From the NCBI GenBank assembly GCA_010093605.1, contig MU004198.1, forward strand, positions 498,726 to 562,725: 64,000 nucleotides of DNA, read 5' to 3'. Both the position numbers and the translations under genes were made by a program. The notes under the pieces are model-generated. The model ran no database searches, was not told where the DNA came from, and worked only from the letters and a program-made list of their open reading frames with translations. Every line of letters starts with the position of its first letter. Within the stretch, counting starts at the first letter, position 1. Of this stretch, positions 25,131 through 54,501 are shown one piece after another. This DNA is from Lophium mytilinum. Taxonomy: Eukaryota.

Positions 25131-26415
25131 TCAGGCATCTGCATTCCATAATGTCGAGTTCAGCGTGTCAAAGGTGGCAGCAAAAAGCAGTCCGTCCAGC
25201 TGTAGTCTACCGTGTACAATTCTGGATAAAAGCAATCCGCATAATATATATATTAAATTCTAAGCTTCGTCCACAACTTCACACCACGCTTTGCCTCATC
25301 ACATGTCTATCACGAGGTCTACACCCCATTTCCGCCCCCAGATCTAGAAGTACATGACAGCACCTGAGAAACGCATGTGGGAACATCTGCAGATGCACGA
25401 TTGGAACATGTCTGCGGCAAGAGAACCAATGCCACGATGTCGATGGTCTGAATTCTTCGTCGTTTCCCTCTGCTGCACCAACCAGAGCCAAGTCCAACAG
25501 CTGTGGCACCATCATAACGTGAACTGGCGGGTTCCTGCGGCCACCAACAGGCTGGTACCGCCATACTGCGCTTTTCATGACGACCAAGATCGACAAGCAT
25601 TTATATATACCAAGGGCTGAGATAGGGCTTGGTGTCCGTTAACCGCATGCGGATAGCCGGCGTCAACGGGCTGCGCCGGGCGAATTGAGGCGTGGCAGAC
25701 CCCGGATCCAACTCGTTGCTGTGTGTTTCAAGCGTCGGGTGTGCGCAGGGGAACGCAGCGACTTGGTGGTGCGTCGAGTGCCTGGTTCCTGGAGTCTTTT
25801 TAAGCGCCCGTTTGGCCGCCAGCCGGGCCGTCACAGGTGCTGATAGCGCGCATTGGTGTGAGCACTGGTGAAGCTGCGCCGCACGAGGGTCGTCATGCAG
25901 CATCCGACGAAGTCACAGCAGCAAATGGACGCCTCCGGAAGCGCACACGCCTCTCATACGCCTGATACGCCGCCGGAAAGCTCGGCCAGCGCTGCCGCTG
26001 TGACGGGCGAGGGTCCAAGCGGTGGAGGGGGATAATTCCCAGCCAACCACCACCCAAGCCAGGGCGTCGACAAGACCTCTAGCCGTTGCGCATACGACCC
26101 TTTTTCTTCGTCTCCTGCAGCCCACAAGTCTTCTTCACAACATCCGCACTCCTCTCCTGCCTGTCTGCATTTCCTGGCCTCCAGATCTTGTCGCGTGTTG
26201 GTTTTCTTTAAGACGAAACAGAGCTCCATCTCATTGCATCCGAGCTGCATATCTGCCCACATCCATGCTTACTTTCTCGTAAACCGGCGACAGACATCTT
26301 TCCAGCGTCAAATCACCATTCTTGAGCTTTGCGAATTCATTTTCTGTGAGGCAATTCTTGCTTCCGTTGCTCGACCTTCAAATCCTACAGATATCGCCGA
26401 AAAGCACACACCGCC

Positions 26416-28055
26416 ATGTATCCCGGACAGCCCCCACAGCAGAACCCCCGCCAAAATCGACCTCAGCAACCTCGTCTCCAGCTCCCAGACCGACAACACA
26501 AACGCTTTTCATGGCAGGCCTCGACCGAGGACGTCTCGAAGCCGGCAAATGGCCACCGTGCCACTGGATCTATGGACAGTCAGTGGTCATACGAAGACAC
26601 TCCAATTCACATGAAGGGTGGCCATCCTAGGGATCCCATCCAACGACTCGCACGCGAACCCGATATGTCGACTATTGCTCAATCACCCGTCACCCCCATT
26701 GACACACGACCTCAGTCTATCTTCAACGCACAGATACCTCAGACGGTGACGGTACCGGTACTTTACGCTGCGAACGAATACCCGCCCGAGAAGTCTGGGT
26801 CAGCGTTCCAAGGACCTCCTCCACCACAGGCACCGCATCCACCACAATCGCCCGTAAGCCCACTGCCAATTGGGTATCCCCAGGAGAAGCCCTCCTCTCC
26901 CTACAATGTCCCGCCTCCTTCGCAAACACATCCAGCAATGTACGCACCAGTCGCCGAATCTAGGACCCCGGTATCGCCGCTCCCCCAACACCAAAGAGCA
27001 TCTCAGTACGCACCCGTCGCAGAACCCAGGACACCCGTATCGCCACTCCCACAGCCAGAGCGAGCATCTCAGTATGCCCAACCACAGCAACCGCGAGCAT
27101 CCCAATACGCCCAAGAGCCTTCCCACCAAAGCATACGCCCCCAAAACATCCCGCGCCAAAGCCTCCCCTTTATGCCCACTCCAATCCAAATCCCCTCCTA
27201 CACCCGTCAACGCACCCCAAACCAGACTCCCATCTCCCCTAGCCGCATCCCAGACCTCCCCAAAACCCCCCTATCCGCCCACTCCGCCGCCCCCTACTCT
27301 CGCACCCCCGTCTCGCCGCCTCACTCCCCCGGCGCCCTCCCACTCAAGAACCCAATCGACTTCGACCTCCCCTCACCGACCTTTATGAACCGCCAGCGCC
27401 CCCTCTCCTCCCACACCGACGCCCCGTACTCCCCCACCTCCGCTCTCTCGCCACAAGTCCCCGTGTTCTCGCCGAACGCGCCGACGGGGCCGAATGGACT
27501 GGAGCTGGAGCGGCACCAGCCAGGGCAGATTGCACACCCGAATATGGATTTGAGTGCAAGAGGAGAGTCGCATGAGTGGAAGCATGGGCTGTGTGAGTGC
27601 GGCAGCGACGTAGGGACGTGTATGACAGGGCTGTTTTGTCCATGTGTGCTTTATGGGCGCACGGCGTACAGGCTCTCTCAAAGAAGCCAGAAGAAGGATC
27701 CTACGGAGTTGTTGGGGTTCAGTGCGTTTAATGGGCAGTGTGGGGTTATGGCTAGTGCATGTGGGATTTGGTGTAAGTCATCCCTCCTTGAGCGCTAGAG
27801 GAAAGAGACGCTAATTGTTGTAAAGGCTTGTTCCCGCTAGTCCAGCGGACACGCATCCGACATCTCTACAAACTCACCGGCTCCCTCTTCTCCGACATCG
27901 GAAAGGCATGCTGCTGCTGCTGTTGCGTCGCCATCCAGAACGAGAGGGAGATTAGAGATCGAGAGGAGAGCTCGAGACGGTGGGCCGGCCCGGCGAATGC
28001 GGAGACGTACAGTGCGCCGGGACAGATGGTGTACGCGCCGCCGCCAAGGGGATAA
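26416..28055 (+). CDS. PLAC8-family Cys-rich protein with long Pro/Ser-rich N-terminus; 2 exons
   Basis: W.HGLCEC...GLFCPCVLYGRT, then QRTRIRHLYKL.GS...CCCCCVAIQNEREI; intron ~27773-27826. Confidence 0.9.
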
Positions 28056-28504
28056 AACCCTCAACTCTGGTTTCGGAGTTGAGAATATGCGAAAGAAGAA
28101 AAGAGTATGATCGAATGCAAAGAAGACGAGGGTAAGAGGAGAGAGATGTTACTATTGTTGATACCCATTTTCTGTGCTACATATCCTTCGGCCACGTTTT
28201 GTTACTGTAACGACTTTATGTATTATGAGTCCTCTTCTTCGTTTCCTTTGTTAGATAAGGTGTGTAGTGTAGCGTACTGAATTGGCAAATGTCTATACCC
28301 CTTCGCACTTTTATTTCTCTTGTGTGCTGACGATGATCGCTCGGGATCAATGTCGGGAAACACAATTTCCTTACTGGCGATGGTCATCGGTTGCTATCAA
28401 GTGTCACGCAACATGATGTATAGCAGCACTTTCTACACCCCTATCCACCAGCATCGTTCAAAGATTCTCTTCCTCATCATCATCACCACGTAAATCCACT
28501 CTTC

Positions 28505-31500
28505 TCCGCCCCATATCACGGTGTTCACTCTGAATTGCACCTCCATCATGAATCTTGCAAGTCTGTTTTGTTCTCTACCGACCCATGGCGCATCGTCGTA
28601 CGCCCTGTCCAGCGCACCGCCCACACACCCCCCTCCAACTCCATTGCATCCAAGTCAACAGTCGTTGATCTCCCACCGAACACCATATACCTTGGAGCAG
28701 TTCCGTGTTGATCAAACCACCCACAGCCTCCGACGACTCTATCAATATTGAGCCGTTGTGTTGTTGATCCCATGGCACCCTCTCGGTCGAAGATTTTGAT
28801 CGAACTTCCCACACCCCTCTCCACCCATGAGTTTCGAAGAAAGAGGTTTTGCAATCTCCAACGACTCCATGTTTCTTTATGTCCTCTCTGATTTCAATGC
28901 AAGGAGCCGAATCTCTTCCAACTCCATTGCGAATAGGTGCCGGTAATTCCAAACTCTCCAACAACTTCATAAGCGAATTCCTTCATCTAGTTTCGATGAA
29001 ACAAGCCAATACTTCTCCAACTCCATGTTAGCGATAGATAGTGAGTTTTGTTTCGAACTCTCCAGCGCATCCATATTTTTCTTCCAATTTCTGATTTCGA
29101 TGCAACGAGCCAAATCTCCTCCATGCGGACTATTCTAAGCAGGGTATGTGTCGGGCTCCCCAACGCCTCCATAGGCATACCTCACTTTCCGAGTTCGATG
29201 CGACGAGCGAACGCTTCAGCGTCCCTCCGACTCCATAGCCCTCTAGAATGAGAGTGTTCACACCCTCCTCCGACTCCATGAAGGTTAGTGTAAATGGCTA
29301 TTTGATCTCCCAACAACTCCATTAGTGTGTTACGAGAGGTTTGTTGATCAAATCCCCCAAACCTCTCTCCCAACCATTCCAAGTAGGAGATCGATTTCTC
29401 AATCCACAACGACTCCATTATTCGCTTTTTTTACTGATCTTGATGAAAGTATAGACAGCTTCTCCCAACTCCATGCAAGGAGGGAACGAGCGGTTTGAAC
29501 CCTCCAACGACTCCATCGCATACTTTTGTTCAACTTTTAATGCAACGGGCAAACCCTCCGGCGTCCCTCCGACTCCATTGGCTTTCCTTTCTGGACGATT
29601 TGGCACCCTCCACCAACTCCATCGGTATCAAACCTAGGTCTTTTTATGCGACGAGCCAAAACGCCCTCTGACTCCATGTACTTTTCGTAGTTTTGTTTCG
29701 ATCTCTCCAACAACTCCATATCGATGTAACTGGTTGTGATTTCGATGCAACGAGCAAACGCTCCTACATCGCTCTGGCTATTGAATAGTTTGCTCGGTTG
29801 ATTTGACCCACTCCACCGACTCCATAGTTGATGGCAGCGGGAGATTTTGACGGAACGAGCGAATGCTCTGGCGTCCCTCCATACCATGATGGATTGGGCT
29901 AGGTTGAGCTCACACCCTCCACTGCCTCCATGGGGCGTAGCATATGTACAAGATGTTTTAACGCGGCGAGCCAACCCTCTTCGAACTCCATTTCAGGCTG
30001 TGGAAACCCTATTTGAACCTTCCAACAATCCATCGGTTGCCGCGTCTTGACGTTTTGAAGTAACCTTACACCCCCCTCCAACTCCATAAGTCTACTCCCA
30101 GACTTGTTTCGAACTCTCCACTCACTCCATTAAGTCACACAAGGCACAGGCTTGATGCAATGAGCGAACGCTTCAGCCTCCCTCCGACTCCATGAAGTTG
30201 TATCCATAGTCAATTTGACACCCTCCACCTCTTCCATAAATAGTGTTGTCTGAATAGGATGTTTTGACACAAAGAGCCAACCCTCTTCCAACTCTATGCA
30301 CGATTGCATCAACGGCAATTTGAACTCTCCACCGACTCCATCAATCGGCAACTTGACTTATGTTGATGCCACGAGCCAACACGTCTTCCCACTGCATAAT
30401 TCTTTTTCTTGTGCCAATTTGATATCCTCCACCGACTCCATGAACGTGTGTAGTATTGGTGATGTTGATGCCACGAGCCAACACCTCCTCCGACTCCATA
30501 TGTCTGATTTCTGTAGCGGTTTGACACACTCCACCGACTCCATGAAACTATGGGATCGGAATGTTTTAATGCCACAAACTAATCTCCGACTCCATAAGTG
30601 GTTTCATCTGCCAATTCGACACACTCCACCAACTTCATGGAAGGTGGCATCAGGCTAGGATGTTTTGACACAACGAGCCAACAAGTCCTCCAACTCCATT
30701 CTGCGAACTGGACGTTTTGGTGCGATGAGCCAACACGTCTTCCGACTCCATGAGTGGATAACCTCGTGCCGATTTGAGAGACTGACACACTCCACCAACT
30801 CCATGGGTTTTCGGATTGGGAGCTTTTGATGCGACGAGCCCAACCTCTTCCACCTCCATGCAAGTTCTGGCTTTGATTTCAAATCCTCCGCCAACTCCAT
30901 TAGTGGTTCTCCATCTTTTTTTGATGCGACAAGTCCAACGCTCCAACTCCATAGTTCATACCAGCAAGCGCAATTTGACCCTCCACCGACTCCATGAGTC
31001 GTATATACACTTGTTTAATGCAACAGGCCCACAAGTCCACCAACTCCATAAATCGATATTCTTGTACCGACTTAACACCCTCCACCACCTCCATTGAAGT
31101 CTAGGGTCGGGTGCTTAGAATGCAACAAGCCCGACCTCTTCCAACTCCATGGTAGCAGCGTACGCCTTAGTTTTCAAACTCTCCACCAACTCCATGTTAC
31201 ACCATCTGGTCGACTTTGATGCGACGAGTCCAACACTCCAACTCCATACGACACCGGTGAATGCCATTCGAACTCTTCGCCGACTCCATAAGCCGTAAGG
31301 TTATGAGTGATGCAACGACCCAACCCTCTTCCCGACTCCATATCCGCTTTCTTGCACCAAGTTGACTCACTCCCACCGACTCCATGAGACATGGGTTCGG
31401 ACTATTTTGACACAACGAGCCAGCCCTCCTCCAACTCCATCGGTCTCTCAATTGTATCGATTTGACACCCTCCACCTGCTCCATCACATATAAAATGTGG

Positions 31501-31735
31501 TGCTTTGACACAACGAGCCCAACCTCTTCCAACTCCCTAAACTATGCCGGTGAATGTATTTTGAACCCTCCACCGACTCCATGCGTCGGAAAGTGATTTG
31601 TTCAATGAACGGACCCAAGCGTCCTCGGACACCATGCACCAGTCGTACAACATGGTTTGATCTCCCACCCCGACGCCATGGGTAGCCCGGTTGTTCGTTT
31701 TGATCCACCCAGCCAACCTCCCAACTTCCCATGAG
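28505..31735. repeat. Interspaced dual-box repeat array: ~30 units of ~100 bp, each with box A (~32-42 nt), a ~20 nt spacer, box B (~23 nt) and a ~20-24 nt spacer
   Basis: Box A ~TTGATGCRACGAGCCAAC..CTYCCRACTCCAT (e.g. 30465-30499); box B ~TTTGACACNCTCCACCRACTCCAT (e.g. 30520-30543). About 60-66 boxes counted by eye; spacers mostly non-repetitive. Confidence 0.93.
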
Positions 31736-31988
31736 AAAGAAGGTCTGAGACGCTGAGGGATTGGGGTTATATAGGAGAAAAGAAGTGACGGACGCAGGGG
31801 TTAGTCAGCACGCGTGTGACACCTGCGATGACATGGCAAGATACCACCGCACTGATCACAAGAGCAAGATCGGGAAACATCGGAACGAACATCTCACATG
31901 CCGGGATGATACGCCTGCTAACGTACTACACTTTTACCCCTCACCGCTCCTCCTCCCCCTATCAATCCCCCCCTATCAACCCCCCCTA

Positions 31989-34900
31989 CTACTCCCCCTC
32001 CCCCTCCCCTTCCGCCTCCCTCCTCTCCATCCACTCCCTCTCCACCGCCCTCACCCTCTCCACCCCCTTCCCACCCTCCTCCCCCTCCTCAAACTCCACC
32101 CACCGTCTAAACACCACCCCCGCCCGCCTCCTCTTCACCCTCCCCTTGACCATCCTCTCAAACAACCCCCTCACATACCCCCTCTCCCCATGCGCCCGCT
32201 CCAACTCCACATACACATCCCACGTATCCCACTTCCTCGGCTGCGCCGCGACTAACCCCTCGAAAATCGTGCGCCCGCGCTCCGCATCCCCGTTCGGGGA
32301 CTTGTACTCCAGCGCCGCGAACTTGGTCGTCAGCTGGCGGTGCAGAGCCGCGGGGACGGACTGGGTAGCGCGTTGGAGGAGGGCGCGGGCGCGGGTGGGC
32401 GATGGGGGCGTGAGGGTGGTCATGAGGAAGGTGGCGTAGGAGAGCCAGAGGGTGGGGGAGGGGGTGAAGGATTTGTTCTTGATCATGGCTTGGTAGAGGG
32501 AGTCTGCTTTCTGTAACGGGATCTCTGTTAGTTGATGTTTACTTACGTGAGGGAGATATGTGGAAAGGGGGGCTTACATCAAGCTTCCCAGACGAGATAT
32601 AGATCTTGATCAAGCGGTCATGCATCTCCTGCGCGTTATTATACTGGCACGCCTCCTTAAACACCTCGTCAACGGCGTCGGCGCTGCTGAAGTCGTTCTC
32701 GAGATGTAGCAGCGCGGTCCACACGTCCAGCTTCGCGGCTTCTTCGCGGGGGAAGATGGAGGAGAGGGCGCGCCGGGCGATTTGGCGCGCTTTTTCGATC
32801 TCGTTGAGTTCGCGCTGGAAGACCATGTAGCGGACCCACAGCTCGGCGGAGTTGGGCTGGCCCATTAGGAGGCGCTCGAAGTCGGCGACGGATTGGGGGC
32901 CGTTCTTGTCGAGGTCGCCTGTGCGGTCGATCTTGATCTCAGGTTTACGGTGCTTTTTCTTCTTTTTCGTGGCGTCCGCGGAGGAGTCGGAGTCTGATCC
33001 TGCGGCGTTGTTGTTGAAGCCGAGGTCGGTGCTGTTCCAGTCGAAGCCGGATGTGCTGAGACCGAGGACGGCTTTCGTGGAAGGCTTTTCGTCAATTTCC
33101 ATTTCGTCGGCGGCATCAGACTCCTCGTCTGATACGTCATGGACATCTCTCGTGTCGGCGTCGTCTTCTGAGGCTTCGCTTTCGGAGTCGGCGTCTGACA
33201 CTCCTTCCATGAGATCCACGCCACCGATCTCACCATCCGAATCACTCCCTGCGGCGTCCTCTGAGCTACTCTTAAAATAAGAGTACTTTAGGCCTAAACT
33301 GATTCTTCGCAACTTGCTGTCAACCTTTAGAATCTTGGCCTTGACTGCATCACCCTCTTTGTATAAGGATGCGAGGTCCTCGACTTTCTCATCGGCAACC
33401 TCACTGTGATGACATAGACCACTGACGTTGTTCGAATTATCGACGACAATGAAGACACCGAATTTCTCGACTTTCCGGACTTTGCCTGTGACGATGTCGC
33501 CCTTATTCAGATCGTTGAACTCGACAGGAGGGACATAGTCTTCCACCAGAACAGAAGCTTTCAAACTCATTGAGATTTGCTTCTTCTTGCTGTCAATTGA
33601 AGTGATTCTGCCAGTGACAAGCTGATCAATCTCGTATAAACTCTTCCAATCCTTGATATAAGCATCAGAAAGGTCGGAGACACGGGCATATCCGACGATG
33701 TCGAGACCCAAGAAGATGAATAATCCACTGTCAGCAACCCTCTTTACAAAACCTCGTACAACTTGGTTGGCCGTTAGTTGAGAGAACTCTGTGATTTGCG
33801 GATCCTTGACGGGGAGAGAAGAGCTGAGAACGTTTGAAGGCCTCGTGGAGAGTACGACCTTCTTGTTCGGTACATCCACGTCGACAACGCAAACTCGAAT
33901 GATATCTCCTCTCGCATGAACGGTCGGATTTGCTTGAGAGTAGTCGTCGGCGAGTTCGGTAAGGAAGACACGTCCTACAATATTTTCGTTGATTTGAACA
34001 AGAACAGTAGACTCTGTCACTTTTAGAACGAGTCCTCCTACCACCATCCCCTTGTTGAGGTCTTTCAATGTAAGTTTGTTCTGCGAGGATTCGACGGCAA
34101 GATCTAGTCGGTTGGATGCAACATCAACAGCTTTGACAGAGACCTGGAGAGCGGTGCCGATTGGGAAGTTCTTCTCGACATCTGCAAGCAACGACACATC
34201 ATCGGACAGATCCATGAACTCGATTCTGCCACGCACGACAGGCGTCAAATTGACCCAGAGGTAGGTTTCTCCGATATGGTTGACGAACGCTGTCCATTTG
34301 GATCCGACAGTTACATTTTCCAAGGTAGGGATTTCTTCTGCCGAAGCCAATTTTGGGAGTTTCTTGGCACTGAGTTCGTAGACTGGATTCCTCCCCTGCC
34401 GATGAGAGATTGGCAAGAACCTGTGATTTTTCGCGTCGTGGAATCCTATTATCCTCACTTGAACAATCTGATTGGCATGGAACTGTCGAAGCGGGCGCTT
34501 CTTATCTCTGATTTCGTCCCAAGTATCGAACGCCTCGGTGGCATATATCCTGCCGTGAATGTTCTCGGAGACTTGAACATTCACTTGCGTGCTCTTCACT
34601 GATTTGACGCGAACAGAAATCGTCTTTCCGAATTGCAAATCTGTGACCGCCTTGATGGAGGAGTCTACAGCCTCGACGATCTTTAGCTCTTCCTTGACAG
34701 GCGTCGGGGGAATCGCCTCGGCTACATCGTCTTTACTCTTCATGGTGAGCAAAAATTGACGCTTGCTCTCGTCTATATCAAGTACTCGGGTCGTGATGGA
34801 CTGATATTGACGAAGACCAAAATCCGGAAGCTGGGCCATCTCGCTGGTCATTTGAGACTTCAACAACAGGCCAACCATTCCGCCAGCGAATTCGACGAAG

Positions 34901-37492
34901 ACTCTTCCTGCTTCGATCGCCCGAACAAAACCATGAGCCTTTTGACCTTTTACAACGTCTTCAAACTGTGTAATTAACTTCTTTGCTCGTGCGTCCTTGA
35001 CAAGGCTAGGTTTATTTGTGAGGCCCACAATTGGCTTCTTATGGTTTTTCGATAGAACCACCAAGTCTCGTAACGGACGGCCAACTTCTACGCGCTCTAG
35101 TGCGGACTTGTTCTTCTTTTCAGAGCCGTCTGAAAGCTGTGCGAGCCTGATGATGCCCCTGATTCCGTCTCCAAGGTCAACAGTCACCGAGTCTGCTGAC
35201 TTCTCCTTGACATTGCCACCAACGAGATCTCCAAGTGAGATCTTTTCGAAAGCAGTCTGACGCTCAACATCCGCAGACTCCGGATCTTTGCAAGAGACGA
35301 CCAGCTTCTGGTCTTCGCCTTTCAACTCATTCGAGAGCACTCGAACGTTCACCACCTGCCCGACCCGGAAGTGTATGGTAGGGTCATCGATGTAGGCTTC
35401 GCTCATTTCGGATATGGGCAACCAGGCCTTGATTTCGCCATAGAATTGAACAACAGCTCCAGCGCTCGTGACTTTCATCAGCGTACCTGGAGACTTCATG
35501 CCAGAGGTGATTTTGTCGTAATCCGTCCATGGCTGTGCTTCTGAGTTGACCAATGATTTCTTCAGAGTAAGCCGTATTTTTCGTCTGCTGAGATCGACGG
35601 CAAGAACTCTTGCTGTGACTGATACACCTTCTCTAAACTTCCGGTCGGGGTGTGATAGATGAACGTCAGCAAGGTGCATTTCTGGAACGACACCTGTAAT
35701 TCCTTCTGCTAGGTTGACGATAACAGCCGATCGTCCTTCTCCAGTGGCAATCAACTTTTCGACTTTACCCTTAACGATCTGACCAACCTGCACGTCCTCG
35801 TGGCGGAAGAACGGCTGGTCCAGGACACTCGTTTCTAGAGAGACCAAATATAGCCCATCCATAGGGTTGTAACCAATGACGCGAGCCCGGTGTTTCGACT
35901 CAAGTTTGTAAGGACCTGACGAGTCAGTCAAAGACTCGATTTTCTCGTTACTGATTCTTGATATGTGAGCAAAGGCCCGAAGGCCCTTGACGCCGACGTC
36001 AAGAAAAAGCCCTGTAGTAGGCTCGACCTTGGTCACCCTGGCGTCTTCAACAATGGAAGATATCTGGAGAGCATCTAACGGGTCCTTGAGGTCCTTCTTC
36101 TCCGTGCGAGGGGCCAATGCGATGACATGATCTAGCAAGGAGACACCAACCTTCCTGGGCTCGCTGTCCGGAAAGGTGCATATGACTCTAGCGCGACACT
36201 TTGATCCGATCTTGTACTTGTCAGAGAGATTGGCTTTGCTCACAGCTGCGCCAGATTGGAAAAGATCCGCAGTGGCATCTAAAAGGCCCATCAGCTTGCC
36301 AGTAACTCCTTCGGTCGATGTGTCAGTAATGAGCACTTCGACGGCTGTTCCGGGTAGGAAGAGGTCGATATTAGGGGCCTGTCCTAGGAAGGCAAACTTT
36401 TTGGGGTTGGCGGCTTTTTCGTGATCTGCTGACAGTTTGATGATTCTGCCGTCGGAGCTGAGGCCAGTAACCAAGCACAAGAAGACTGCACCCTCCTGTA
36501 CTAGAGAATGGTCTATTTGTGAACCCAACTCTTTTGACGACATAAATCCCCTGACAGTCTGGTCTTCCAACCCGATATCCATGACCAGTCCATGTTCTTC
36601 ATTGCTAAGCACAGACGCCTGTAGCATGCTGTTCTTCACGATGTCGGACTTCGAGATGCCTCGGTTGACCAGCGTAGGATTGGTGGAGAGCTCTATTCGT
36701 TTCTTGCTTCTGGCAATCCCCTTCTTGTTTTGCGCCCTCTCCGTTGCTGTAACATAGGCTCGCAAGTATTGACCCACACGAAAGATCTCCTTTAGATCAA
36801 TGTCGTCTTCTTTATCAGAGCCAGCAGCGTCCTCGTCTCCCTCGTCTTTTTCCAAGAGCTGCTCTATCCTGCTGGTGAACTTGTCGGATATAGCGGTGAG
36901 GGGAATGAATCCGGAGAGATTGTTCGGGAGCGCGAGAACAACATCTCGAGAGGTAATCTGTGTAACCTGTCCAAGGACCATAGATCCAATAACGAGTTTC
37001 TGCGACTAGTCAGTAGTGTTCAAGTCGTCGGCGCAAACTGCTCACTTTGTAGCTCAGCCCCTCAATCTTCAACACAGGCTCTTCCGGCAACTGTGCGTCG
37101 GCCTTCTTGTCCGCCTTCGATTTCTTGTGCTTCTTGCCCCTTCGTACTTCTGGTTTTGGTTCACCATCATCTTCATCCTCGCTGTCCTGGCCTTTTGTGG
37201 TCTTTTTCTTCGCAGATTGCTCGAACAGGACGTCCTGGGTCGCCTCGATCTGAATCTGCTTGTGTTCCAAGGGGGTAAGAACACTAGCGCCACCTCGAGG
37301 GAAGGATGTCTCCTCGCTCTTCAAAATCGTGTTCTTTGGTAAGTTTCGTACGTCCGACGTTGGCTTCGCTTTGCTTTCGTCGGCGGTCGATTCGACTTTG
37401 CGCTGTCGCTTCGAAGCGCGATTGTCGGACGAATGCTTGATTTTCTTTGCCTCGGAGCTTTCGCTATCCGCGCCTCGTTTCAAGGGCGCCAT
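31989..37492 (-). CDS. RRP5: rRNA biogenesis protein Rrp5 (S1 repeats plus HAT repeats); 3 exons
   Basis: FPRGGASVLTPLE, many S1 repeats, PQSVADFERLLMGQPNSAELWVRYM, GDAERGRTIFEGL. Confidence 0.96.
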
Positions 37493-43777: not shown

Positions 43778-44857
43778 ATGTCTCATCTTGAAGCTGGAAA
43801 TCTGTTCAATGTCAAAGACATGGTGTTCGTGGTCACCGGTGGAGGGACCGGAATCGGTGCAATGTTTGCAAGAGCTCTGGATATCAACGGCGCCGCAAAG
43901 GTCTATATCATCGGCCGTCGGCTCGACAAGCTCCAGGAAGTTGCGCAATCAGCGGTATGGACATTCTCTATTATCCGCTTGGCGCCAGCTTCTCTATTTC
44001 GGTCGTTGCTTGTAACCTCTAGTTGATGGATCCAATGCAGACAAATCAAACCATTATTCCCATCCAGGGCGATATCACTTCCAAAGAATCCCTCACAACC
44101 ATCGCTGAGCGGATCACCTCCGAAGTTAGTTTCGTCAACGCCGTAATCGCGAACTCGGGCGCCGCGGGCCCTAGACTCGACGCTCTTCCGAAGTCACCAC
44201 CACCTTCTCTTGCAGATCTTCATGCTTTCCTCTGGGCGACACCCCCTGCTGAATTCAACGAGACCTTCTTTGTTAACACCACCGCGGCATTTTACACACT
44301 GCTTGCGTTCCTCCCACTCCTCGACGCAGGCAACAAAGACGCAAGAAGCCCCACGGTCCGAGATGGAGGTAGTGTAAAGAGCCAGTTCGTTGCAACGAGC
44401 AGTATTGGTGGGTTTAGTCGCAGACCGGGAATGGGGTATGCGTATGCAGCGAGTAAAGCTGCGATCATTCATCTGGTGAAGCAGATGAGCACGTGCTTGG
44501 CAGACTACCACATCAGGTGCAACAGCTTCTGTCCCGGCATCTATCCCAGTGATATGAGCCAAGTGAGATGTTATCGGTCATTCGAGTAAGAACTAGCTAA
44601 TGATTTTATCTAGGGTATGATAGGTAAAGATGACCGCACAGCAATGGGCTCGGTCAGTGGAGATATCGTTCCACTTACTAGAATTGGTAATGATGAGGTA
44701 GGTTCCGCTCTGCGATCGCTGAAGTCTTCCGGGCTAATGTCTATAGGACGCCGCTGGGGCGCTGCTGTTTCTTTGCAGTCGGGCTGGCGCGTATATCAAT
44801 GGGAATATCTTGATCTCAGACGGCGGTAGGATGTCAATTGTACCGGCTACCTACTGA
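43778..44857 (+). CDS. Short-chain dehydrogenase/reductase; 4 exons
   Basis: VVTGGGTGIG, ANSG, catalytic YAASK, IRCNSFCPGIYPS, YINGNIL.SDGG. Confidence 0.9.
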
Positions 44858-45084
44858 GCCTACGAAAATCTGGTTGTTGCAAGCATCTAACCGACTTGAA
44901 GAGGTCTCGTAGCCGAAGTCCTTAGTGCACTAGAAACTCGATTCTATTCTACAAGATCAACCCTCTTGATTCAAATCAAGCATCTGAAGCCATGAGAATC
45001 AAACATAGAAGATATTCCGCATAGAGCATTTAATTAGTACGTTATTAGACTATCCTTAAGTCTCCCCATCGACAAGATAAACGA

Positions 45085-47260
45085 TTACAGGTGTGTCTCC
45101 TCGATATGTTTACGATGATACTTCTCGCCTACAGTCTCCTCATCCCCCTTCCGTCCCTGCAGAGTTGCAGCCACAGACCGCGTCATCAATTTATCAATGT
45201 CGGCGATGAAGAAGGAGACAATAATAGCCAGCCCTCCGAAGGCAATCGACACGAGGAATATCGTTCGATACGCATCCATGTATGCGTGTTGGTACGCCTT
45301 CCCGCCTGCTACAAGGACTTGAGGTGTGAGGCCTTTCACGGCGGCAAGGAGCTTGGGCGAGCCCCCAGCTGCAATTGCGGTCCTTGAAGAATGATTAGTC
45401 TAACTCGGGTGGAACGAGTGGTGCAGCAGGGCGATAGGATTTAGGTCTTACATGTAGTCGAGAACCGACGTGGCTGGTAAGCCTGCCTTGATGACAGCCG
45501 CCGGGACTTGGGCGGGAATGGTCTTCCCGACTCGAGTAGCAAGTACGACGCTGTAGATGGTGCTAGCGACCGTGCTGATGGCGCTACGAGAGGATCCCGC
45601 AATACCGGCAGCGGTACCAATCTCCTGCTGATCGGTGATGACGATGGTGCAGATAGGTAGGACCAGAGCCTCGTTCCAGCCGACGAAAATGGTCGCGATG
45701 AAGACAATTCCCATGGCGGTTCCAGGGGTTTCGGGCGTGCACACAGCCATCAGACCCAACAGAAGGGTGCCGAGGGAAATCACGGTGATACATTGGTATT
45801 TCCTGTGGACGTTAGTAGAGCTCACTGCCAAGGCTGTATAATCAAAGGTAAGCTTACCAGAATCCGAGATTCTTTGCGATACTTCCTATATCACCATCAA
45901 ATTAGCATCACTCCAAAGACCATAAACAGTCAATACACAAACGTACCGCCGATGATCTCTCCGACTGTTATACCAACACCGACAAGGCATGATACAATTC
46001 CAACCCAGGAGGTCCGGCCGTTGCCGTATACAGATGCTGCCATCTGAGGCCAGATGATTGCTTGCGAGTAGTAGACACTAGCGCCGAGAGAGAGAGACAA
46101 CATCGCTGGGGTAAAGCCCTTGGTCCGGAAAATGTGCATTGGGAGCAAAGGCTCCTTGAGATCGACAAGAGTCTCGTAGAGGAAAAGTGCCACGAGGGAT
46201 AGGAAGCCCACAACAATGAACGAGATGGTTTTCGGGTCTGTCCATGGGTAGAGACTGTCACCACCTGATGAGAGACCCAGAATGAACTGCGTTGAGGATT
46301 GCTGTTAGTCTTGTCTCTCCTTCGAGGTTACGTATGAAGGTATAACTTACTAGGATCAGGCCTGCAGTGTACAGGAGAAGACCGATATAATCGAAGTTCT
46401 TTATATATTGCATCTTGGAATCTGTACCGTGCTTTTGGTGGAAGTTTGGCGGGAAGTAGAATATGCCATATAGGATTGCCGTTAGGCCGTTAAGGATGAT
46501 CAAGAGGTAATAGCACCACCTCCATCCGGGACCAGTTTTGGTAATGAGCGATGTGGAAATAGCAGCACCGAATCCAGCAGTAGGCAAACTGAAGATGAAG
46601 ATGATGGCGTTGGCGATGAAACGATGTCGAACTGGCACGATCTCCCCACTGATGAATGAATAGGAGTAACCCGTGCAAGCGGACAACCCGACGAGTGTTT
46701 GTCCGCCAATGAGCACAGGAATGGTTTTGGCTGTGGCTGCGATGATGGCACCGATGAGGCCCAGGATCGTTCCTCCTATGAAGAACCAACGGCGACCGAA
46801 TATGTCCTATTGTCGGATATTAGCATATTGGAGACGAAAACTATTCGGTACAAGCCGAGTTTGGATGATGAAGATTCAACTTACAGATAACCGGCCGACG
46901 AGGAGTAAGCCAACAGCGAGACCAATTGTATACACGAGTGCGAGCCAGATGATGCTACTGGAAGGACCCAAAGCTACACTGATATCGCCAAGAACTGGTG
47001 CGATCAATGCAAAACCAGCAGTCGAGGCCTGTGAAAACGTCAATTAGCTTCGAATTCGAGGACGACGACAAGTCACTTACCGCCAAGTTCATTCCAATGG
47101 CCAGGAAAGTTCCTATAAAATACGGCGATCGCCAATAACCCGCGGGCAACTCTTCAGACTCGACGGCGAAGCCATGGGCAGCGATAGTATCTTCGCGTTG
47201 CAACTCGTTGCTGTTGTTGACGTGCTCGATAGCTTCGGAGTGCTGCTTTTCGACTTCCAT
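45085..47260 (-). CDS. MFS transporter, TRI12/trichothecene-efflux-pump-like family, multi-exon
   Basis: LPAGYWRSPYFIGT, IFGRRWFFIGG, GWRWCYY, FYFPPNF, YQHAYMDAYRTIFLVSIAFG. Confidence 0.9.
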
Positions 47261-48257
47261 GATGACCTGTCGTTTAGGCTTGGTTGAGGGATGCAAGTTA
47301 CAAGAATGATACAAATTGGACTTGATATGGCAATATATCACCAAGTCACCGGAACTTAAGTCACAAGGACGTGGTCACCGGATTTCCGCGGATGTTAAAT
47401 ACTTGACCGACTCTGGCAGGCATTCTAAGCGCGGAGCATCCATTGTCTTGGAACTCTGAACCGTCTACCAATTTGTCGGGACGGCATAGCCGCGATCAGG
47501 GGTGGTCTTCATTCTGGACATGCTGGGTCGAGATCGATCCATTCCGTGCGCCGCAGATTGATGCTATTGCCCGAGAGAGACCGAAACAACACCATTCTCG
47601 AATGACAGGATATGGATGGGAGACCGTGAGAGGACTGAGAGAAAGTGGCGTCAAGCCTCGCGCTGACCTTTCCACAAGCTACCCCAGACATAGGTCCCAC
47701 TTACCCCAGGTGTGGGACCGGTGTTGCGGATAATCTGGGGACTAATTTAAAGCGTGCGGGGGTGGGTCATGAGTTGCCGTTAGCTCAGATATGACCCTCC
47801 GCGGGCGGCTTCAGTGCGGCTGAAGCCATGCTCAGCAGAGAAAAAGCATCTAAGTGCTACTGCAACTATCTTGCAGATTGCTCCATTTCAGGTCATATCC
47901 AGCCAAACGATAAAGGCTTCCGTGAATAGAGTTAGTACGTCTCGGACGGTCCAAACGACCGGACGTAAGCCTTTTGCGGAGCTATTATTGCGAAGTCGTG
48001 GTGTGATTGTTTTCCGAATGGCGGAAAAGTGTACCCGACTCAACACTATGCACGTCCCTATCGAGGATGTTCTGTTCGGGTTAGGAACATTTTTGTGACG
48101 CGTTTGTACCCAGGCGGTCTATGGTGCTTCAATCCATATGCAGGGGCATGTGTCAAATCTAATGGAATACTTTTATTCGTTTCAAGTCTAAGTCAACAAG
48201 GCAACGTAATCAGTCCTCTCAAAGCACCTCTTTCGATTCGATTCTAAGTCTGTAGCC

Positions 48258-49444
48258 ATGTCTACGCTGCCACTCCGTCGTCTTGGGACAAATGGTCCTC
48301 TGGTATCCGCCATAGGCTTCGGCGCCATGGGCCTAAGCGTCTCATACGGCAAGGTTGACGAAAACAGCTCACGCTTCGAGGTTCTAGACAAGGCCTTGGA
48401 GCTCGGCTCGACTTTTTGGGACACTTCAGACGTGTGTTAGTATTTGCAGACATGACCCCTGGTGTAGATTACCGAAGCTGAGTGTTGCTAGATGGAGATA
48501 GTGAGGATCTTCTTCGGCTGTGGTTTGAGCGTACAGGAAAACGTGACAGTGTATTCCTGGCCACCAAGTTCGCAGTCACCAAAGATGCAGACGGCAAGGC
48601 TACGGTCAGGTCCGATGCGGAGTTTGTCATGCAGGCTTGCGAAAAAAGCTTGAAGAGGCTTGGAGTTGAAAATATCGATCTTTACTACTGCCATCGCGTG
48701 GATAAGACTACACCGATAGAGAAGACAGTCGCAGCGATGGCTGTACTCAAGAAGTATACCACCCTTCTTATCTTTGACTAGTCATCATGATGCTAACTTG
48801 CTAAGGCAGGGCAAAATTAGGGCGATAGGACTGAGCGAAGTCTCTGCTGCCACTATCCGGCGTGCGGAGAAGGTCCACCATATCGACGCGGTACAGCTTG
48901 AGTACAGCCCATTCATGCTGGACATTGAGTCCCCTGAAATTGATGTCATGCGCACCTGTCGGGAGCTGGGAATTGCAATTGTAGCATACAGTCCTCTCGG
49001 AAGAGGCTTTCTGACTGGTCAAATCAAGTCACCGGATGATTTTGAAGAAGGAGATTTCCGAAAGCATGCACCGAGATACAGCAAAGAGAACTTCCCGAAG
49101 AACTTGCGGCTCGTGGAAAATCTTCAGAAAATAGCAAAAGGGAAGAAGTGCACTCCTGGGCAGTTGACTCTTGCATGGATCTTGGCTCAGGGAGAAGACG
49201 TCATCCCAATTCCGTAAGTGAACACTCACTTCAGAGTAAACGTTTTGAATAACCATTGTATAGTGGGACAAAGAAGGTGAAGTATCTGGAAGAGAACGTC
49301 AATGCAGCCAAGGTCAAGTTGTCGCCTACCGAAGTTCAAAACATTCGAGATGAGATTGAGAAAGTTGAAGTCGTGGGCGACAGGTATCCCGCTTTCTTTC
49401 AACAATACAGCTTTGGAGACACGCCACCTCTCGAGGGGACATAG
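48258..49444 (+). CDS. Aldo/keto reductase (YakC-like)
   Basis: [58 protein letters not shown]. Confidence 0.94.
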
Positions 49445-49658
49445 GCTAGTCCGAAGTGCTTAAGGATGTTTGATGGATGATAGTGTGTAGAGAGTTTCTT
49501 TTTCCCACTGGGTACCTAATAGCAGGGCGACTTCTGACAGTGAGTATGATTGTGGTGAAGCAGTGGTATACCAGTGTGCCCAAACGTACGATCTATTGCT
49601 GTACCTCAAGATGAGCCGTGATTGAGCTTTACAATGCGTTTGTTGGTACATGTATCTA

Positions 49659-50469
49659 CTAGCATACCCATCCGCCGTCAATTATCTGTACAGTACCAGT
49701 GATGTATTGCGTCTCATCACAAAGCAACCACGTAATCAACGACGCGACTTCCTGCGGCAGTCCTTTCCTCATAATCTGACATTTCCAGACCTGTTCTCCG
49801 CCTCTCGCAGCCACAGATTTCTGCTGCATTGGACCCTCAATCATGCCACTAGCTAGAATTAGATTCCATTGCAGATAGATGTCAATGTACAACTTACGGT
49901 GCGATACAGTTGATCCTAATTTCTCTCTCTCCAACTTCTTTCGCCGCCGTCCTGCTCAACCCAATTACCGCGTGCTTACTCGCCGTGTATGCCGCATTCT
50001 TCGGAAACCCAATCACCCCACAAATACTCGCCGCGTTGACCATACTCCCCTTATCCTTCATCTGCGCCAGCTGAGCCCGCATGCAATACATAACCCCATG
50101 CAGGTTAACATCGAGGACGAAGTTCCAGTCCTCGTCGTTCAGATCCTGAACTCGTTCCTTGTTGATGACTTTGGGAACCACCCCGGCTAGGTTGACAGCG
50201 CCATCTAGCTGGCCGAATGCTTCGACTGTCTTCGCGATCCAGGAGTTGACTGCGGCGCTAGAGCGCACGTCTACGACCGTGGAGAGGACTTTGCCGGTGC
50301 TGACGGCTTCGATCTCTTTCGTCTTTTCGGCGAGCGCGTCGGCGGAAATGTCGCAGATTGAGAGGTGAGTTCCTTGCCGGGCGAGTAAGAGGGCGGTTTG
50401 GAAGCCGATGCCTGAGGCGCCGCCTGTGAGGGCAATGACTTTGCCTTTGATGTCGTAGTCGACAGGCAT
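49659..50469 (-). CDS. Short-chain dehydrogenase/reductase; 2 exons
   Basis: ALTGGASGIG, NLAGV, YTASKHAVIGL, IRINCIAP|G, YITG...IDGGW. Confidence 0.93.
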
Positions 50470-51236
50470 GATGATGAGACTGTTTGGAGTGGCAAAAAGA
50501 GCTCTTGGAAGGTACGAATGTGATAAAATTGACGTCGGGAAGCTATCGGATAGTAGCAAGATAAAAAGTGGTGGCCTTCAAAACAGCATTATGTCAAACA
50601 AAGCTGATTATTCTCTGCATCAGGCTACCGTAATCGGACAACCCGCAGTACTCCTAATTCCAAGCTCTCGCGTCCTATCTTCCACATCAGCCGGAAAAGC
50701 TGATACGTATTGTGTGGAGAAGTACACCCGCACAGCCAGGCACCTCCGCATGTCTCCTTTGCCGCAACTCTCCCGTCCAGACTTCCAGGAGGAACGGAGG
50801 GGCCGAAGTCATGAGTTCTGTTGGACGCGTAGGAGGGGTTTATGAAGCAGTCATGAGTTGAAAGCATATGCGGGGTTAATGCAAGGCTCCACAATTCAAG
50901 CTAGCGCTAGTGTCTACTGTAGTGTAGATCTAGTGAACGTGTTATCGATAGCCGTTCGTAGAGTGTGGGGTAGCGGGGAAGTGGATCGCGAGGCTGACTT
51001 ACCCCTGTCTCTCACGTTGGAGAATGATATCCGGCATAAAGGGGCTGGGAGCGAGTGGGGGCAATATTGGAGTAGCCCAGACCAAGGCGCATGTGAGGCG
51101 CCGACCAATTCACGGGGAGCATCCTAGCATATCCGCCTTTAGCATTCGTTCCTAGCCCGTAGGTAATTTACACCATGCGTCCGTAACATGAACTGAGAAG
51201 GCTCTACGCAATTTACCCTACGATTGATATTTCAGG

Positions 51237-52389
51237 ATGATGAAAGCAGCGCAATGGGATCCGGTTCGCTTCCCTTCACTGAGTCAATACGAATTCCTAT
51301 TAACACTCGCTGCAGTCCCAGAAAAAGGTCGTAGTCAACTCGATTCCAATACCCTCGCCGGCAGATAACCAATTTCTTGTAAAGATTGGATCTGCCTCGT
51401 TATGCCACAGCGATTTCATGTCTATGGCTATGCCGCACAAGGAGCCCATCACTATCGGCCATGAAGGTGCTGGATACATCGACAAGCTACACCCATCCGC
51501 TGAGAACAAAGGCTTCAAAGTTGGCGACGCTATTGGCTTTACATATATCATTGATTGTTGCTTTGAATGTGAGGGCTGCAAGGTCCATAACAACCACTGC
51601 CTGGTACAAGAGAGCCACACGCAAGGGTTCACTGCACCGGGACTATTCGCGGAGTATGCGCTGGTGGACTATCATAGTGCGATTCTACTACCTGATTCTC
51701 TCTCTGTGAAGACGGCGTCCCCTATGTTCTGCGCGGGCATCACAGGTACTGATTCTCTCATTGAATGTCAACAAGAAACCTCGAAAGATGCAATGCTGAT
51801 ATTCTATATAGCATTCCATTGCGTCGACTCTTGCCACCTCCAACCAGGCCAATGGCTCGTCATCATCGGCTGCGGTGGTCTCGGGCAACTAGCAACTCAA
51901 TACGCAAAAGCGATGGGTATTCGCGTCGTCGGCGTCGACATCAACGATGACATCCTCGCAACAGTGAAGCGGCAAGGTGCGGACGCAGTCTTCAATTCCA
52001 TCACGAACCCAAACTACGTAGACGAAGTGAAAGCATTCATGGACCGGGGCCCGAATAAGGGCGCTGATGCTGTGGCAGTTTTCTCCGCTGCAGATGCCGC
52101 CTACAGGAGCGCTCCGCCGCTGGTGAAGCTGGGAGGTATGATCATGGTTGTGGGTTTGCCAAAGAACGGAGTAACGTTTGATGCTCTGGATATTGCGAGA
52201 GGCACTTTCCAAGTCAGAGGAGATAGTACGGGAACTCCAGACCGGATGAAGAAGGCGATAGACTTCTCGGCGAAGCATGGCATCGCGTCAGAAGTGGAAG
52301 TATATCCTAGTTTAGAGAGCGTGAATGATATGGTGGAAAAGATGAGAAGAGGAGAGAGCACGAAGAGGATGGTAGTTTCATTTGATTAG
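51237..52389 (+). CDS. Zinc-binding alcohol dehydrogenase (MDR), spliced
   Basis: MKAAQWDP exon, ASLCHSD, IGHEGAG, CFECEGC, PMFCAGIT, GCGGLG. The start could lie in a short upstream exon (~51175). Confidence 0.9.
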
Positions 52390-52467
52390 ACTATAACAAG
52401 ACATGTCTATATTCCGCCTAGATGAAATGAGTGCTGCGTTTCTCGTGCTTCAACATTGACCAATGCT

Positions 52468-54501
52468 CTAAAATGTCCTTGGCCTTAACTTCAACTTCAG
52501 CGATGGCTTGATCCAGTTATTGTACACCACCATGTTCTTGTAATCGCCCACTGGGTTCCAGATCTCGTTCTTCCCGTACATTTCCACGTCGTTATGCCAC
52601 AGAAGCTTACCCACTAGACTTATTAGCAAACGGACATGAATAGAGCGTCAAAAATAACTCACTGATTAGTCTCATTTCCATGTACGATAGACTAAAGGGA
52701 AGCAGTCAGTGATTGATCAAAAGTCGTTGACAAGGGACAGTGACGTACTTTCGCCCGATGCACCCTCTAGGCCCCAGTGAAAATGCATTACTTGCTCCCA
52801 ACTTATCTGTAGGATTCTCTCTATCAAACCAGCGCTCCGGGCGGAAGACATATGGGTCTTTGAAGTTTCTTTCAGAGTGTGTCGCCGCCCAATTGCAGAC
52901 AGAAACGGTTGTCTTTTGAAGTGAAAGTCAGCATAATGCCGTTCAAGCTCACGACCAAGATGAAAGGAAGGAAACACTCACTCCTTCAGGAATGAAGTGC
53001 CCACAAATGGTATCACCTCCCGCTGGTACCGTTCTCACGAATCCGATCGGGGCTGACGGAAACATTCTGAGGCCTTCGTCGATCACGGCTGTCATATAGG
53101 GCAGTTTGACGAGGTCTTCGAAGTTGAGGTCGCCGTCGGACTTGAAGTTTGATCGAATTTCATCCGTTAGCGTGTGTAGGATGTGCCGATTCTCCGGGCG
53201 TGTTATGAGATTGAAGAGACCTGTGAGGAAGCCAGCGGTGGTTTCCGTTCCAGCAATACTGCAAGTATGTGAGACTATGAAGCTTTGCATAGGATGCCGA
53301 CTTACATGAACAGCGCGCCATTCACAATCACCTCGTTGAGATTCAGTTCACCCTTATCTTGTTGTTTCATTACATAGTACAAGAAGTCCTTGTTTGGGTT
53401 ATTTGTTTGCTCTATGCGTCTGCAAAGCCGCGATGGTCAGTAAAGCCTCACCATTCACGAATCACGGTGTTCCACTCACTTCAAGATTTTCTCTCGACTA
53501 GTATCCAGATGCTTTTGCCTCGTCTCGCTGATTCGGCCAGGTATGCAAGACTGGAGGAATGTCTGCAGCGGACTACCGGCCGTTGCGACTCTCCGGGTGG
53601 CTTGCTCAATTGCTCCAGCCTTGATTGATTCACTGATGAGGGGAACCCAGTATCTGAAGTCCTCTACACCACATTAATTACTGAAGAACAGTCATCTCAA
53701 AGGAAACTTACTATTTGTAAGGCAGCCAAAAGGTTCGCCCAACGCCAGTTCTCCGATGACATCGAAAGTGGTGTACGCGAACCAATTCGTTACATCTACG
53801 ATCCCGTCCTTGGCTGCAAATTCTTTCATCTTGTCTGAGAAGATGTTGATGTACTTCATGACGAGATACTCCTGCTCTAGCAAAGCTTTGGTCGAGAAAG
53901 CATGAGACAAGGCCCGTCGTTGGCGGGCGTGATCTACATCATTCGCCATTGTTATGGAAGAGACGCCCGGGACCGCTGCTATGGATCCAACGTGGATAGG
54001 ATCTGATTTAGTATTAGGTATGGAACCTGTCGCTGATAGTTTTGATATCCGCACCTTTGTGAAAATTTTTATGGCCTGGACGGCTGCCGTAGATGTCCTT
54101 CCATGCCGCTTCTTCGTCAAAGCAGAGTTCATTCGGCGACACGCGGACTATAGGGCCAAAGTTGTCATGCGCAGATTTCATGAAGAATGGTATGCGGCCG
54201 CGGAGAAGGCTGATTGTGATTGGAATCTGCCATGCATCATTAACATCTTTTTGGGACTGAGCTGCGAGCTGGCACGTTTTGCGGTACTCACTGGAGAGAT
54301 TCGTGCTAAGAAAGGACCTGGATATTTCGCAAGGGGATGAAAATAGAGCCGGTATATTACAACTACAGCATAATACACGAAGACCTGATCTGAATCAGCT
54401 TAAATTATTCTTATTCGGAGAGTTGAACTCACACAGCTGCCAAATAATATTGCAAGAGTGTTACCGAAAGGCGCATTTTCCGTTTCACTCAAGACCGCCA
54501 T
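52468..54501 (-). CDS. Cytochrome P450 monooxygenase (CYP65/TRI11-like), multi-exon
   Basis: HPLAKYPGP, HARQRRALSHAFS, I-helix AGTETTA, EGLR (ExxR), FRPERW, heme motif FSLGPRGCIG at ~52755-52785. Confidence 0.93.

Follow-up and report, generated by a model that had tools for sequence, protein, structure and literature searches.

What kind of element is a 3.2-kb array of two alternating conserved boxes in a fungal chromosome, and where do the variable linkers between its boxes come from? The question is raised by a stretch of 64,000 nucleotides (nt) of the Lophium mytilinum genome (GenBank assembly GCA_010093605.1, contig MU004198.1, positions 498,726 to 562,725 of the forward strand), which was analysed as a whole and is called the window hereafter; all coordinates are counted from its first nucleotide. 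[quoted passage not shown] Our analyses revealed that it is an unusual transcribed, motif-constrained tandem repeat, with linkers that descend from one another by duplication.

The array occupies the interval between the stop codons of a PLAC8-domain gene (28053-28055, + strand) and of RRP5 (31989-31991, - strand), the convergent neighbours already named on first pass. Splitting the sequence at the copies of a core motif, CC(A/G)ACTCCAT, yielded the following parse.

28547-31732, + strand: the whole array, 64 head-to-tail units
28455-28546, + strand: possibly one or two further degenerate units, which may belong to the array
28547-30130, + strand: the degenerate left half, with an exact core in 10/32 units
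30131-31732, + strand: the better-conserved right half, with an exact core in 21/32 units and a recognisable higher-order repeat of ~300 nt (three A/B dimers)

The core is exact in 31/64 units and within one mismatch in 44/64. Allowing at most one substitution, the + strand of 28400-31800 has 44 copies of it and the - strand none, and there are six on each strand in the remaining ~60 kb of the window. The recurrence on one strand of some 60-66 copies, close variants included, as first described, is borne out by the 64 units. A spaced pattern of three cores has five matches in the array versus 0.00 in 100 shuffles. The units belong to two classes, 32 A units of 50-64 nt and 32 B units of mostly 41-45 nt, with the unit at 30752 relabelled as B. 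Long and short boxes alternate as had been proposed, in 61/63 neighbour steps; the exceptions are an extra B at 29237/29280 (B-B) and an extra A at 30639/30700 (A-A). The end-to-end distances given on first pass are also correct, since B units measure 41-45 nt in 27/32 cases and A units 52-64 nt in 31/32. Together they form an A/B dimer of ~100 nt, with lengths from 86 to 112 nt. At both ends of the array the outermost units are degenerate. Three public sequencing runs contain the array: X1 and X2, which are DNA and probably come from the source sample, and X3, from an independent study. It is found with 0 differences in read-based contigs of X1 and X2 and, in part, in the RNA contigs of X3, and is thus not an assembly artefact.

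Each unit is composed of a linker of ~20 nt followed by a box. In both types the box starts with TTTGA and ends with CTCC..CC(A/G)ACTCCAT; on the - strand, the whole box reads ATGGAGT(C/T)GG...TCAAA. The following examples were read in the sequence.

30465-30499, + strand: a box A of 35 nt
30500-30519, + strand: a linker ('spacer') of 20 nt
30520-30543, + strand: a box B of 24 nt

These coordinates, and those of two further spacers (30194-30213 and 30442-30464), are as the first-pass annotation had placed them. The linker has a median length of 20 nt in A and B units alike, and measures 19-21 nt in 22/31 locatable A units and in 24/30 locatable B units (46/61 measurable units overall). The constancy of its length had been recognised, but the range proposed, mostly 18-24 nt, was too wide. 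Box B has a median length of 24 nt (22-25 nt in 28/30 locatable units), and box A one of 35 nt (34-36 nt in 22/31 locatable units, with variants of 29-33 and 41-43 nt). In the consensus, box A is box B with an insertion of 11-12 nt (TGCAACGAGCC-like) after TTTGA. The base composition of the boxes is skewed towards C and away from G (C 0.39, G 0.11), a bias that the linkers do not have. The linker edges are partly constrained: at each of the three positions that follow CCAT, 64-70% of units have a purine; linker positions 7-8 are T-rich.

Analyses of sequence identity revealed a strong contrast between the two parts of the unit. Eleven B units have a length of exactly 44 nt and could be compared pairwise without gaps; their identity is 0.28 over positions 1-19 (the linker), 0.65 over box positions 20-34, which were not used as an anchor, and 0.85 over the core (positions 35-44). 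The non-anchor box blocks TTTGA, GATGCAACGAGCC and CTCC are also conserved. In global alignment, boxes of one type share 0.67-0.76 identity. The mean pairwise identity of the linkers is 0.26-0.27, versus 0.257 expected from composition, and their mean local alignment score is 4.24, versus 4.18 +/- 0.02 for shuffles. The linkers thus align much worse than the boxes, in agreement with the first-pass claim that box sequence and linker length are far better conserved than linker sequence, and this contrast excludes a uniformly decaying satellite; spacers as alike as the boxes, named on first pass as grounds for refutation, are not what is observed. Invariant positions of the boxes lie in between others that vary freely, such as the R of CCRAC. 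Indels occur inside box A, the length of which varies from 29 to 43 nt, yet linker length is held at 20 +/- 1 nt. The interleaving of invariant and free positions, together with this fixed distance, points to a recognition motif and a ruler, and hence to purifying selection on many linear sites. It is plausible, judging from the paralogous units of this one genome, that the boxes and the 20-nt spacing, rather than the linker sequence, have been kept by purifying selection.

The origin of the linkers was addressed by comparing units at increasing offsets. At an offset of six units, mean linker similarity is 4.72 over the whole array, versus a permutation null of 4.25 +/- 0.14, and 5.20 in the right part, versus 4.26 +/- 0.23; 0/2000 permutations reach the observed value in either case. 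By the same permutation test, similarity is not raised at offsets 2, 4, 8 and 12 (p 0.24, 0.59, 0.44 and 0.98, respectively). In the right part, 19 pairs of units of one type lie six units apart; their global identities are 0.51 for the linkers and 0.76 for the boxes, against a background of 0.45 and 0.67. Blocks of ~300 nt, corresponding to six units or three dimers, align to one another; the linkers at 31248 and 31539 have CCGGTGAATG in common, and another linker family is CTTGTGCCAA-like. The spacers had been described as unique. This holds for their mean identity, which is near that expected by chance, but not for those six units apart, which are significantly alike. Their paralogy indicates that linkers descend from one another by duplication and excludes spacer acquisition, and with it goes the main attraction of the analogy with CRISPR and TIGR arrays, namely acquired spacers.

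Thus, the array is an old tandem repeat that grew by ordinary duplication, as satellites do, from a monomer to an A/B dimer and then to a higher-order repeat of three dimers, followed by drift. In this history, a monomer of ~44 nt was duplicated, and one of the copies acquired the insertion of 11-12 nt that makes it a box A. The resulting ~100-nt dimer was amplified, and later also the ~300-nt block of three dimers, after which the linkers drifted almost to randomness.

Four A units, at 29173, 29517, 29826 and 30131, harbour the same extra insertion of 7-8 nt (GCTTCAGCGTCC-like), which brings their boxes to 41-43 nt. It recurs every 305-344 nt, which again betrays the ~300-nt higher-order repeat, here in the half of the array that is older.

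The array is non-coding, as the first-pass annotation had deduced from unit lengths that are not multiples of three. Dimer lengths leave remainders of 0, 1 and 2 on division by three in 9, 10 and 12 of the 31 dimers, respectively, and the longest open frame in the array has 151 residues. No Pfam family was detected at E<=0.1 in 10 open reading frames (ORFs) of the array and no protein relatives at E<=0.01 for three array ORFs; a fourth had 0 hits among 1.84 billion representative proteins.

Analyses of RNA structure were equally negative. The fold z-scores are 0.33 (+ strand) and 0.14 (- strand) for positions 30298-30595, and -0.38 (+) and -1.68 (-) for 30901-31195. RNAalifold, which had been put forward on first pass as a check for covariation, predicted 0 pairs on either strand of 20 dimers, and no hairpin was found. 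There are 0 Rfam matches at E<=1 in 27500-32500, and ARAGORN detected 0 tRNAs. Other candidate explanations for the boxes were discarded. To read box B as a tRNA 3' end with its CCA would require a T-stem or acceptor strand, and there is no complementary one upstream, consistent with the ARAGORN result. G-quadruplexes on the - strand do not fit either, with four G2 tracts in just 27/64 boxes, and the length of box A is too variable for a helical phasing of the two ends of the box.

The new result is that the array is transcribed, as an unspliced RNA contig from an independent study indicates. The evidence comes from run X3, initially guessed to be RNA, and involves both neighbouring genes.

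26350-28055, + strand: last two exons of the PLAC8-domain gene, with an intron at 27773-27825 confirmed by an RNA joint; the mRNA contig extends to 28274
31989-37005, - strand: RRP5 (S1 domains, HAT repeats), at least two exons, with an intron at 32511-32577 confirmed by an RNA joint
29523-31666, strand not readable: X3 RNA contig of 2,144 nt, unspliced, depth 24.5, 0 differences from the window
28579-28922, strand not readable: X3 RNA contig of 344 nt, depth 2.5

As the X3 contigs skip the introns of both neighbours (GT..AG at 27773-27825, CT..AC at 32511-32577), X3 is RNA. The 2,144-nt contig covers the better-conserved part of the array. Contig depth, which is a rough guide to expression, is 318 for the PLAC8 gene and 788 for RRP5, so that the array contig stands at roughly 3-8% of its neighbours. 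Uniform DNA background does not explain it, since other intergenic bins have depths of 0-1.9; the X3 stretches without cover (29008-29341 and 31680-32013) are uninformative. Contigs give neither the strand nor the ends of a transcript. Depth is low on the PLAC8 side, which speaks against a transcript running on from that gene, and the simplest reading is that the transcript enters the array from the RRP5 side, on the - strand. One sequence element deserves mention in this respect.

31767-31773, - strand: TATATAA, 35 nt upstream of the first - strand unit (31732)

Heptamers of the TATATAA type occur nine times in the window, both strands counted. This one may be a TATA box for a - strand array transcript or, equally, a poly(A) efficiency element of RRP5.

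What, then, might the array be for? Our favoured reading, to which we give a probability of about 0.35, is that boxes and spacing are kept by purifying selection because they offer many linear binding sites, in a multivalent array, on a long non-coding RNA (lncRNA). The results above show how the array is built and was duplicated, the contrast in conservation between boxes and linkers, the lack of coding capacity and of structure, and transcription. Selection, as gauged from paralogues only, the - strand, an effect exerted through RNA and a protein that binds the boxes are inferred. Purifying selection would hold the short linear blocks (TTTGA...CTCC...CC(A/G)ACTCCAT on the + strand) and the distance of 20 +/- 1 nt between boxes. 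The array would be transcribed, most likely on the - strand from the RRP5 side, into a long, unspliced and unstructured non-coding RNA. By analogy with the tandem-repeat modules in known lncRNAs, this RNA could serve as a multivalent scaffold or decoy that offers about 64 single-stranded copies of a motif to a sequence-specific RNA-binding protein. An action at the RNA level is favoured because the best-kept part of the array is transcribed and free of structure, and because the boxes are strongly strand-asymmetric.

The closest parallel to the favoured reading is repeat A of XIST, described as a conserved GC-rich core with a variable T-rich spacer, present in 7.5-9 copies (PMC12101419). Like repeat A, the array is transcribed and non-coding, and has a conserved core that alternates with spacers free in sequence; multivalent protein binding as in repeat A is the mechanism that we propose by analogy. 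Unlike repeat A, for which a structure is predicted, the array has 64 units rather than fewer than 10 and no predicted structure, and it is fungal.

Several considerations weigh against the favoured reading. The case for selection is built on paralogous units of a single genome, and contig depth is a poor measure of expression. The array RNA could be mere read-through past the poly(A) site of RRP5, and the TATATAA at 31767-31773 could be an efficiency element for that site rather than a promoter. We identified no binding protein and no known RNA motif for the boxes. With 64 redundant sites, strong selection on each single site is hard to explain, and the left half of the array, with its exact core in 10/32 units, is decaying. 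Lastly, uniform orientation is automatic in tandem duplication and has no bearing on RNA. Known motifs compared by eye (CreA SYGGRG, Adr1 TTGGRG, HMG CTTTGAT, Whi3 UGCAU, YCAY, GGAG zinc-knuckle sites, DRACH and the Mmi1 determinant of selective removal) fit just some of the units and were not retained.

The boxes might alternatively act at the level of DNA, as double-stranded sites set at a fixed spacing for a sequence-specific DNA-binding protein, with transcription being incidental. We regard this as a serious possibility, if not a likely one. The array could then be a transcription roadblock or terminator, an insulator, a fork barrier or a chromatin-organising satellite between convergent genes. 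The same conservation and spacing speak for this reading as for the RNA-level one; 20 bp correspond to about two helical turns, and the array lies exactly between two convergent, well-expressed genes. The phased array of protein-binding sites, one of the functions suggested on first pass, stays among the live readings. Nevertheless, no known fungal DNA motif was matched: the consensus sites of CreA, Adr1, HMG and Rap1, compared by eye, fit only subsets of units. The strong strand asymmetry of the boxes and their complete lack of dyad symmetry are unlike the usual needs of dimeric DNA binders. Furthermore, the length of box A (29-43 nt) puts the box ends out of fixed helical phase, and the array is single-copy at >=80% likeness in the DNA contigs examined, unlike satellites.

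Satellites that bear boxes are the nearest systems to such a DNA-level array. Primate alpha satellite combines the CENP-B-box with higher-order repeats of alternating A-B monomers. In Meloidogyne, very divergent tandem-repeat monomers (32-51% identity between species) harbour a fully conserved 19-bp box, to which CenH3 chromatin is bound (PMC8097292), and nematode satellites have conserved motifs arranged in higher-order repeats (PMC3694981). Both provide precedents for a DNA-level function of the array. As in the box-bearing satellites of the Meloidogyne holocentromere, the monomers are arranged head to tail in dimeric and higher-order repeats, a nearly invariant block is embedded in a divergent monomer, and the edges are degenerate. 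Unlike these satellites, the array does not form a family, be it high-copy or centromeric, but is confined to one locus of 3.2 kb with a housekeeping gene on either side; its boxes are of two types, and the variable part is fixed at 20 nt.

A third reading, which we consider less probable again, is that of a neutral or nearly neutral decaying minisatellite, the RNA of which would be read-through noise. The conservation of the boxes would then result from non-selective processes, such as mutational cold spots, or short-tract gene conversion or unequal exchange that starts from the segments most alike. The anatomy of the array is indeed that of an ordinary satellite, with a monomer, a dimer, a higher-order repeat, degenerate edges and a better-homogenised interior. 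The boxes are just 0.67-0.76 identical in global alignment, expression is low, and no relative was found in the metagenome, prokaryote or viral collections scanned. However, unequal exchange homogenises entire units, and the linkers would be homogenised with the boxes. Patches of 24-35 nt are very short substrates for conversion. The interleaving of invariant and free positions in the boxes is the pattern of a recognition motif, not that of block conversion, and the linkers stay at 20 +/- 1 nt in spite of a saturated sequence and of indels inside box A. Selective scrambling by repeat-induced point mutation does not account for the contrast either, as its signature is absent from the array: TpA/ApT is 0.52, versus 0.72 in the window, and (CpA+TpG)/(ApC+GpT) is 1.21, versus 1.18.

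The search for relatives used the three-core pattern. In the metagenome scan, it retrieved 62 loci, all of them repeats of short period (spacings of 6-48 nt) or of coding type; a box of type A or B is present in 0/62. There were 15 further loci in prokaryote genomes and one in viral contigs, all short-period repeats with no B-box. Two metagenome loci bear a superficial resemblance to the array. The first (L051; contig positions 840-1300, - strand) is a homogeneous, AT-rich 48-nt satellite, the unit of which starts with TTGATGA and ends with CTCCAACTCCAT / TCTCCAACTCCAT, thereby resembling the two ends of box A. As it is homogeneous and devoid of a variable linker, we consider the likeness to be due to chance. 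The second (L052; contig positions 1077-1350) has alternating units of 45 and 59/60 nt that end with CC(A/G)ACTCCAT. With unit lengths that are all near multiples of three, it has the look of a eukaryotic coding repeat, and its boxes are unrelated to those of the array; it was also set aside as a chance likeness, like two of the prokaryote and viral loci (L074 and L077) with one match each (<=3 mismatches) to a 19-nt A-box pattern. Four 15-nt strings from the boxes do not occur in the literature searched, and nothing similar was found in the literature on fungal repeat lncRNAs with conserved motifs and spacers.

Could the array nevertheless be a precursor of guide or small RNAs, as the first-pass annotation had suggested? 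Cleavage at the boxes would release RNAs of ~45-55 nt with a 20-nt guide between a 5' CCAU and a 3' UUUGA, handles that would stand in the order in which TIGR and box C/D RNAs have their box C-like and box D-like anchors. The effector, of the Nop type or another, would be encoded elsewhere in the fungal genome, and duplication and drift of the linkers would be the source of new guides. Variable segments with a constant length of 20 +/- 1 nt in a transcribed array are in keeping with this proposal, which we nonetheless judge to be very improbable. The linkers are derived by duplication, and the RNA is one continuous 2,144-nt contig with no hairpin, kink-turn or covariation and no Rfam match at E<=1. 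When compared with the rest of the window at <=3 mismatches, 6/64 linkers match, versus 1-6 for shuffled linkers, although this is a weak test on only 60 kb. The window contains 139 ORFs of at least 110 residues. A domain scan covered 23 + 100 window ORFs and left out 11/139, all of them in alternative frames of the PLAC8-domain gene or RRP5. None of the ORFs scanned has a domain of the nuclease, Nop, Argonaute, reverse-transcriptase or transposase kind, which supports the initial observation that no cas-like or nuclease gene is present in the window. The scanned ORFs correspond to ordinary fungal genes, coding for a Zn2Cys6 factor, an ankyrin protein, CAND1, the PLAC8-domain protein, RRP5, transporters, dehydrogenases and a P450.

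The dimensions of the array are also far from those of TIGR or CRISPR. TIGR arrays consist of two alternating repeats of 8-12 nt and spacers of 9(-12) nt, which are processed into 36-nt units (tigRNAs). They are adjacent to a Nop-domain Tas gene and are found in prokaryotic or viral hosts; their repeats start with UG and end with CCA, so that CCA ('box C') and UG ('box D') motifs flank the spacers (PMC12045711). Like these arrays, ours has two alternating conserved elements and two variable segments per unit, and on the + strand (U)UG opens its elements and CCA closes them. A linker there has CCA(U) before it and U(U)UGA after it, in the same order as the TIGR anchors, a likeness that concerns motifs of 2-3 nt only (PMC12045711). 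These end motifs, TTTGA at the start and CCAT at the end, hardly vary here, leaving no covariation to score. Unlike in TIGR as portrayed in that source, the boxes are 24/35 nt, the linkers 20 nt and the dimers ~100 nt (86-112 nt); the array lies in a fungal chromosome, its linkers are related by duplication, and there is no Nop-domain gene among the scanned ORFs of the 64-kb window.

As in CRISPR, conserved elements alternate with variable segments of constant length on one strand. Unlike in CRISPR, there are two repeat types; these are not near-identical (0.67-0.76, with the core exact in 31/64 units) and contain no palindrome. There is no leader, no cas genes were found among the scanned window ORFs, and the neighbours are fungal genes with spliceosomal introns. 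Furthermore, the linkers arose by duplication and drift, as their similarity at offset 6 indicates (0/2000 permutations). Clusters of box C/D small nucleolar RNAs are a third possible comparison, with their ~100-nt units, variable stretches of ~20 nt upstream of a UGA-containing motif and a long transcript. Unlike these clusters, the array has no RUGAUGA/CUGA pair, terminal stem, kink-turn, Rfam match or predicted pairs; box A starts with TGATGC and box B with TTGAC, and there is no conserved CTGA. Neither the CRISPR/TIGR analogy nor a polycistronic guide precursor is thus supported, given the relatedness of the linkers by duplication (the offset-6 homology), the modest identity of the boxes, their lack of hairpins (0 predicted pairs), the difference in dimensions and the absence of a nuclease or Nop gene among the ORFs scanned nearby.

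The weakest reading, a frameshifted repeat-protein pseudogene or a transposon internal repeat, had been raised on first pass as an alternative and is already largely refuted: the ~100-102-nt dimer is close to 33-34 codons and the boxes begin with ATG on the - strand, but dimer lengths are spread over all three remainders (9/10/12 of 31), there is no Pfam match and there are no protein relatives, the variable box positions fall at first and second codon positions when read from ATG, a pseudogene would lose its boxes, and for a transposon there are no terminal inverted repeats flanking the array, no transposase among the scanned window ORFs and no second copy at >=80% likeness in the DNA contigs of the runs examined.

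Additional features were observed around the array. A C/T-rich low-complexity tract at 31955-32100 codes, on the - strand, for the end of the RRP5 protein, a C-terminal tail rich in Glu and Gly; look-alikes of 30-60 nt are present in several other contigs of X1-X3, and the RNA assembly breaks there. The 3' untranslated region of RRP5 (about 31750-31990) is without cover in the listed X3 contigs. The PLAC8-domain protein has a long Pro/Gln-rich N-terminal region (26350-27400), and its gene contains a 33-nt tandem repeat of two copies with 81% matches at 27049-27114. Further along the window, the 44000-63600 region harbours genes of the secondary-metabolism type, coding for three short-chain dehydrogenases, an aldo-keto reductase, a zinc alcohol dehydrogenase, a P450 in pieces, transporters of the MFS/TRI12 type and a glyoxalase-like ORF.

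For pattern searches, the array calls for caution, as conserved boxes with variable spacers of constant length can arise by tandem duplication with motif-level constraint. Residual paralogy of spacers at the higher-order period is a test that discriminates between acquired and duplicated spacers. If the boxes and the 20-nt ruler are truly selected, a fungus would have in this array one linear motif displayed with a natural valency of 64, which would provide a handle for finding its binding protein. Repeat-module lncRNAs and box-bearing satellites are known mainly from animals, and the array would then be a candidate for the fungal counterpart of one or the other.

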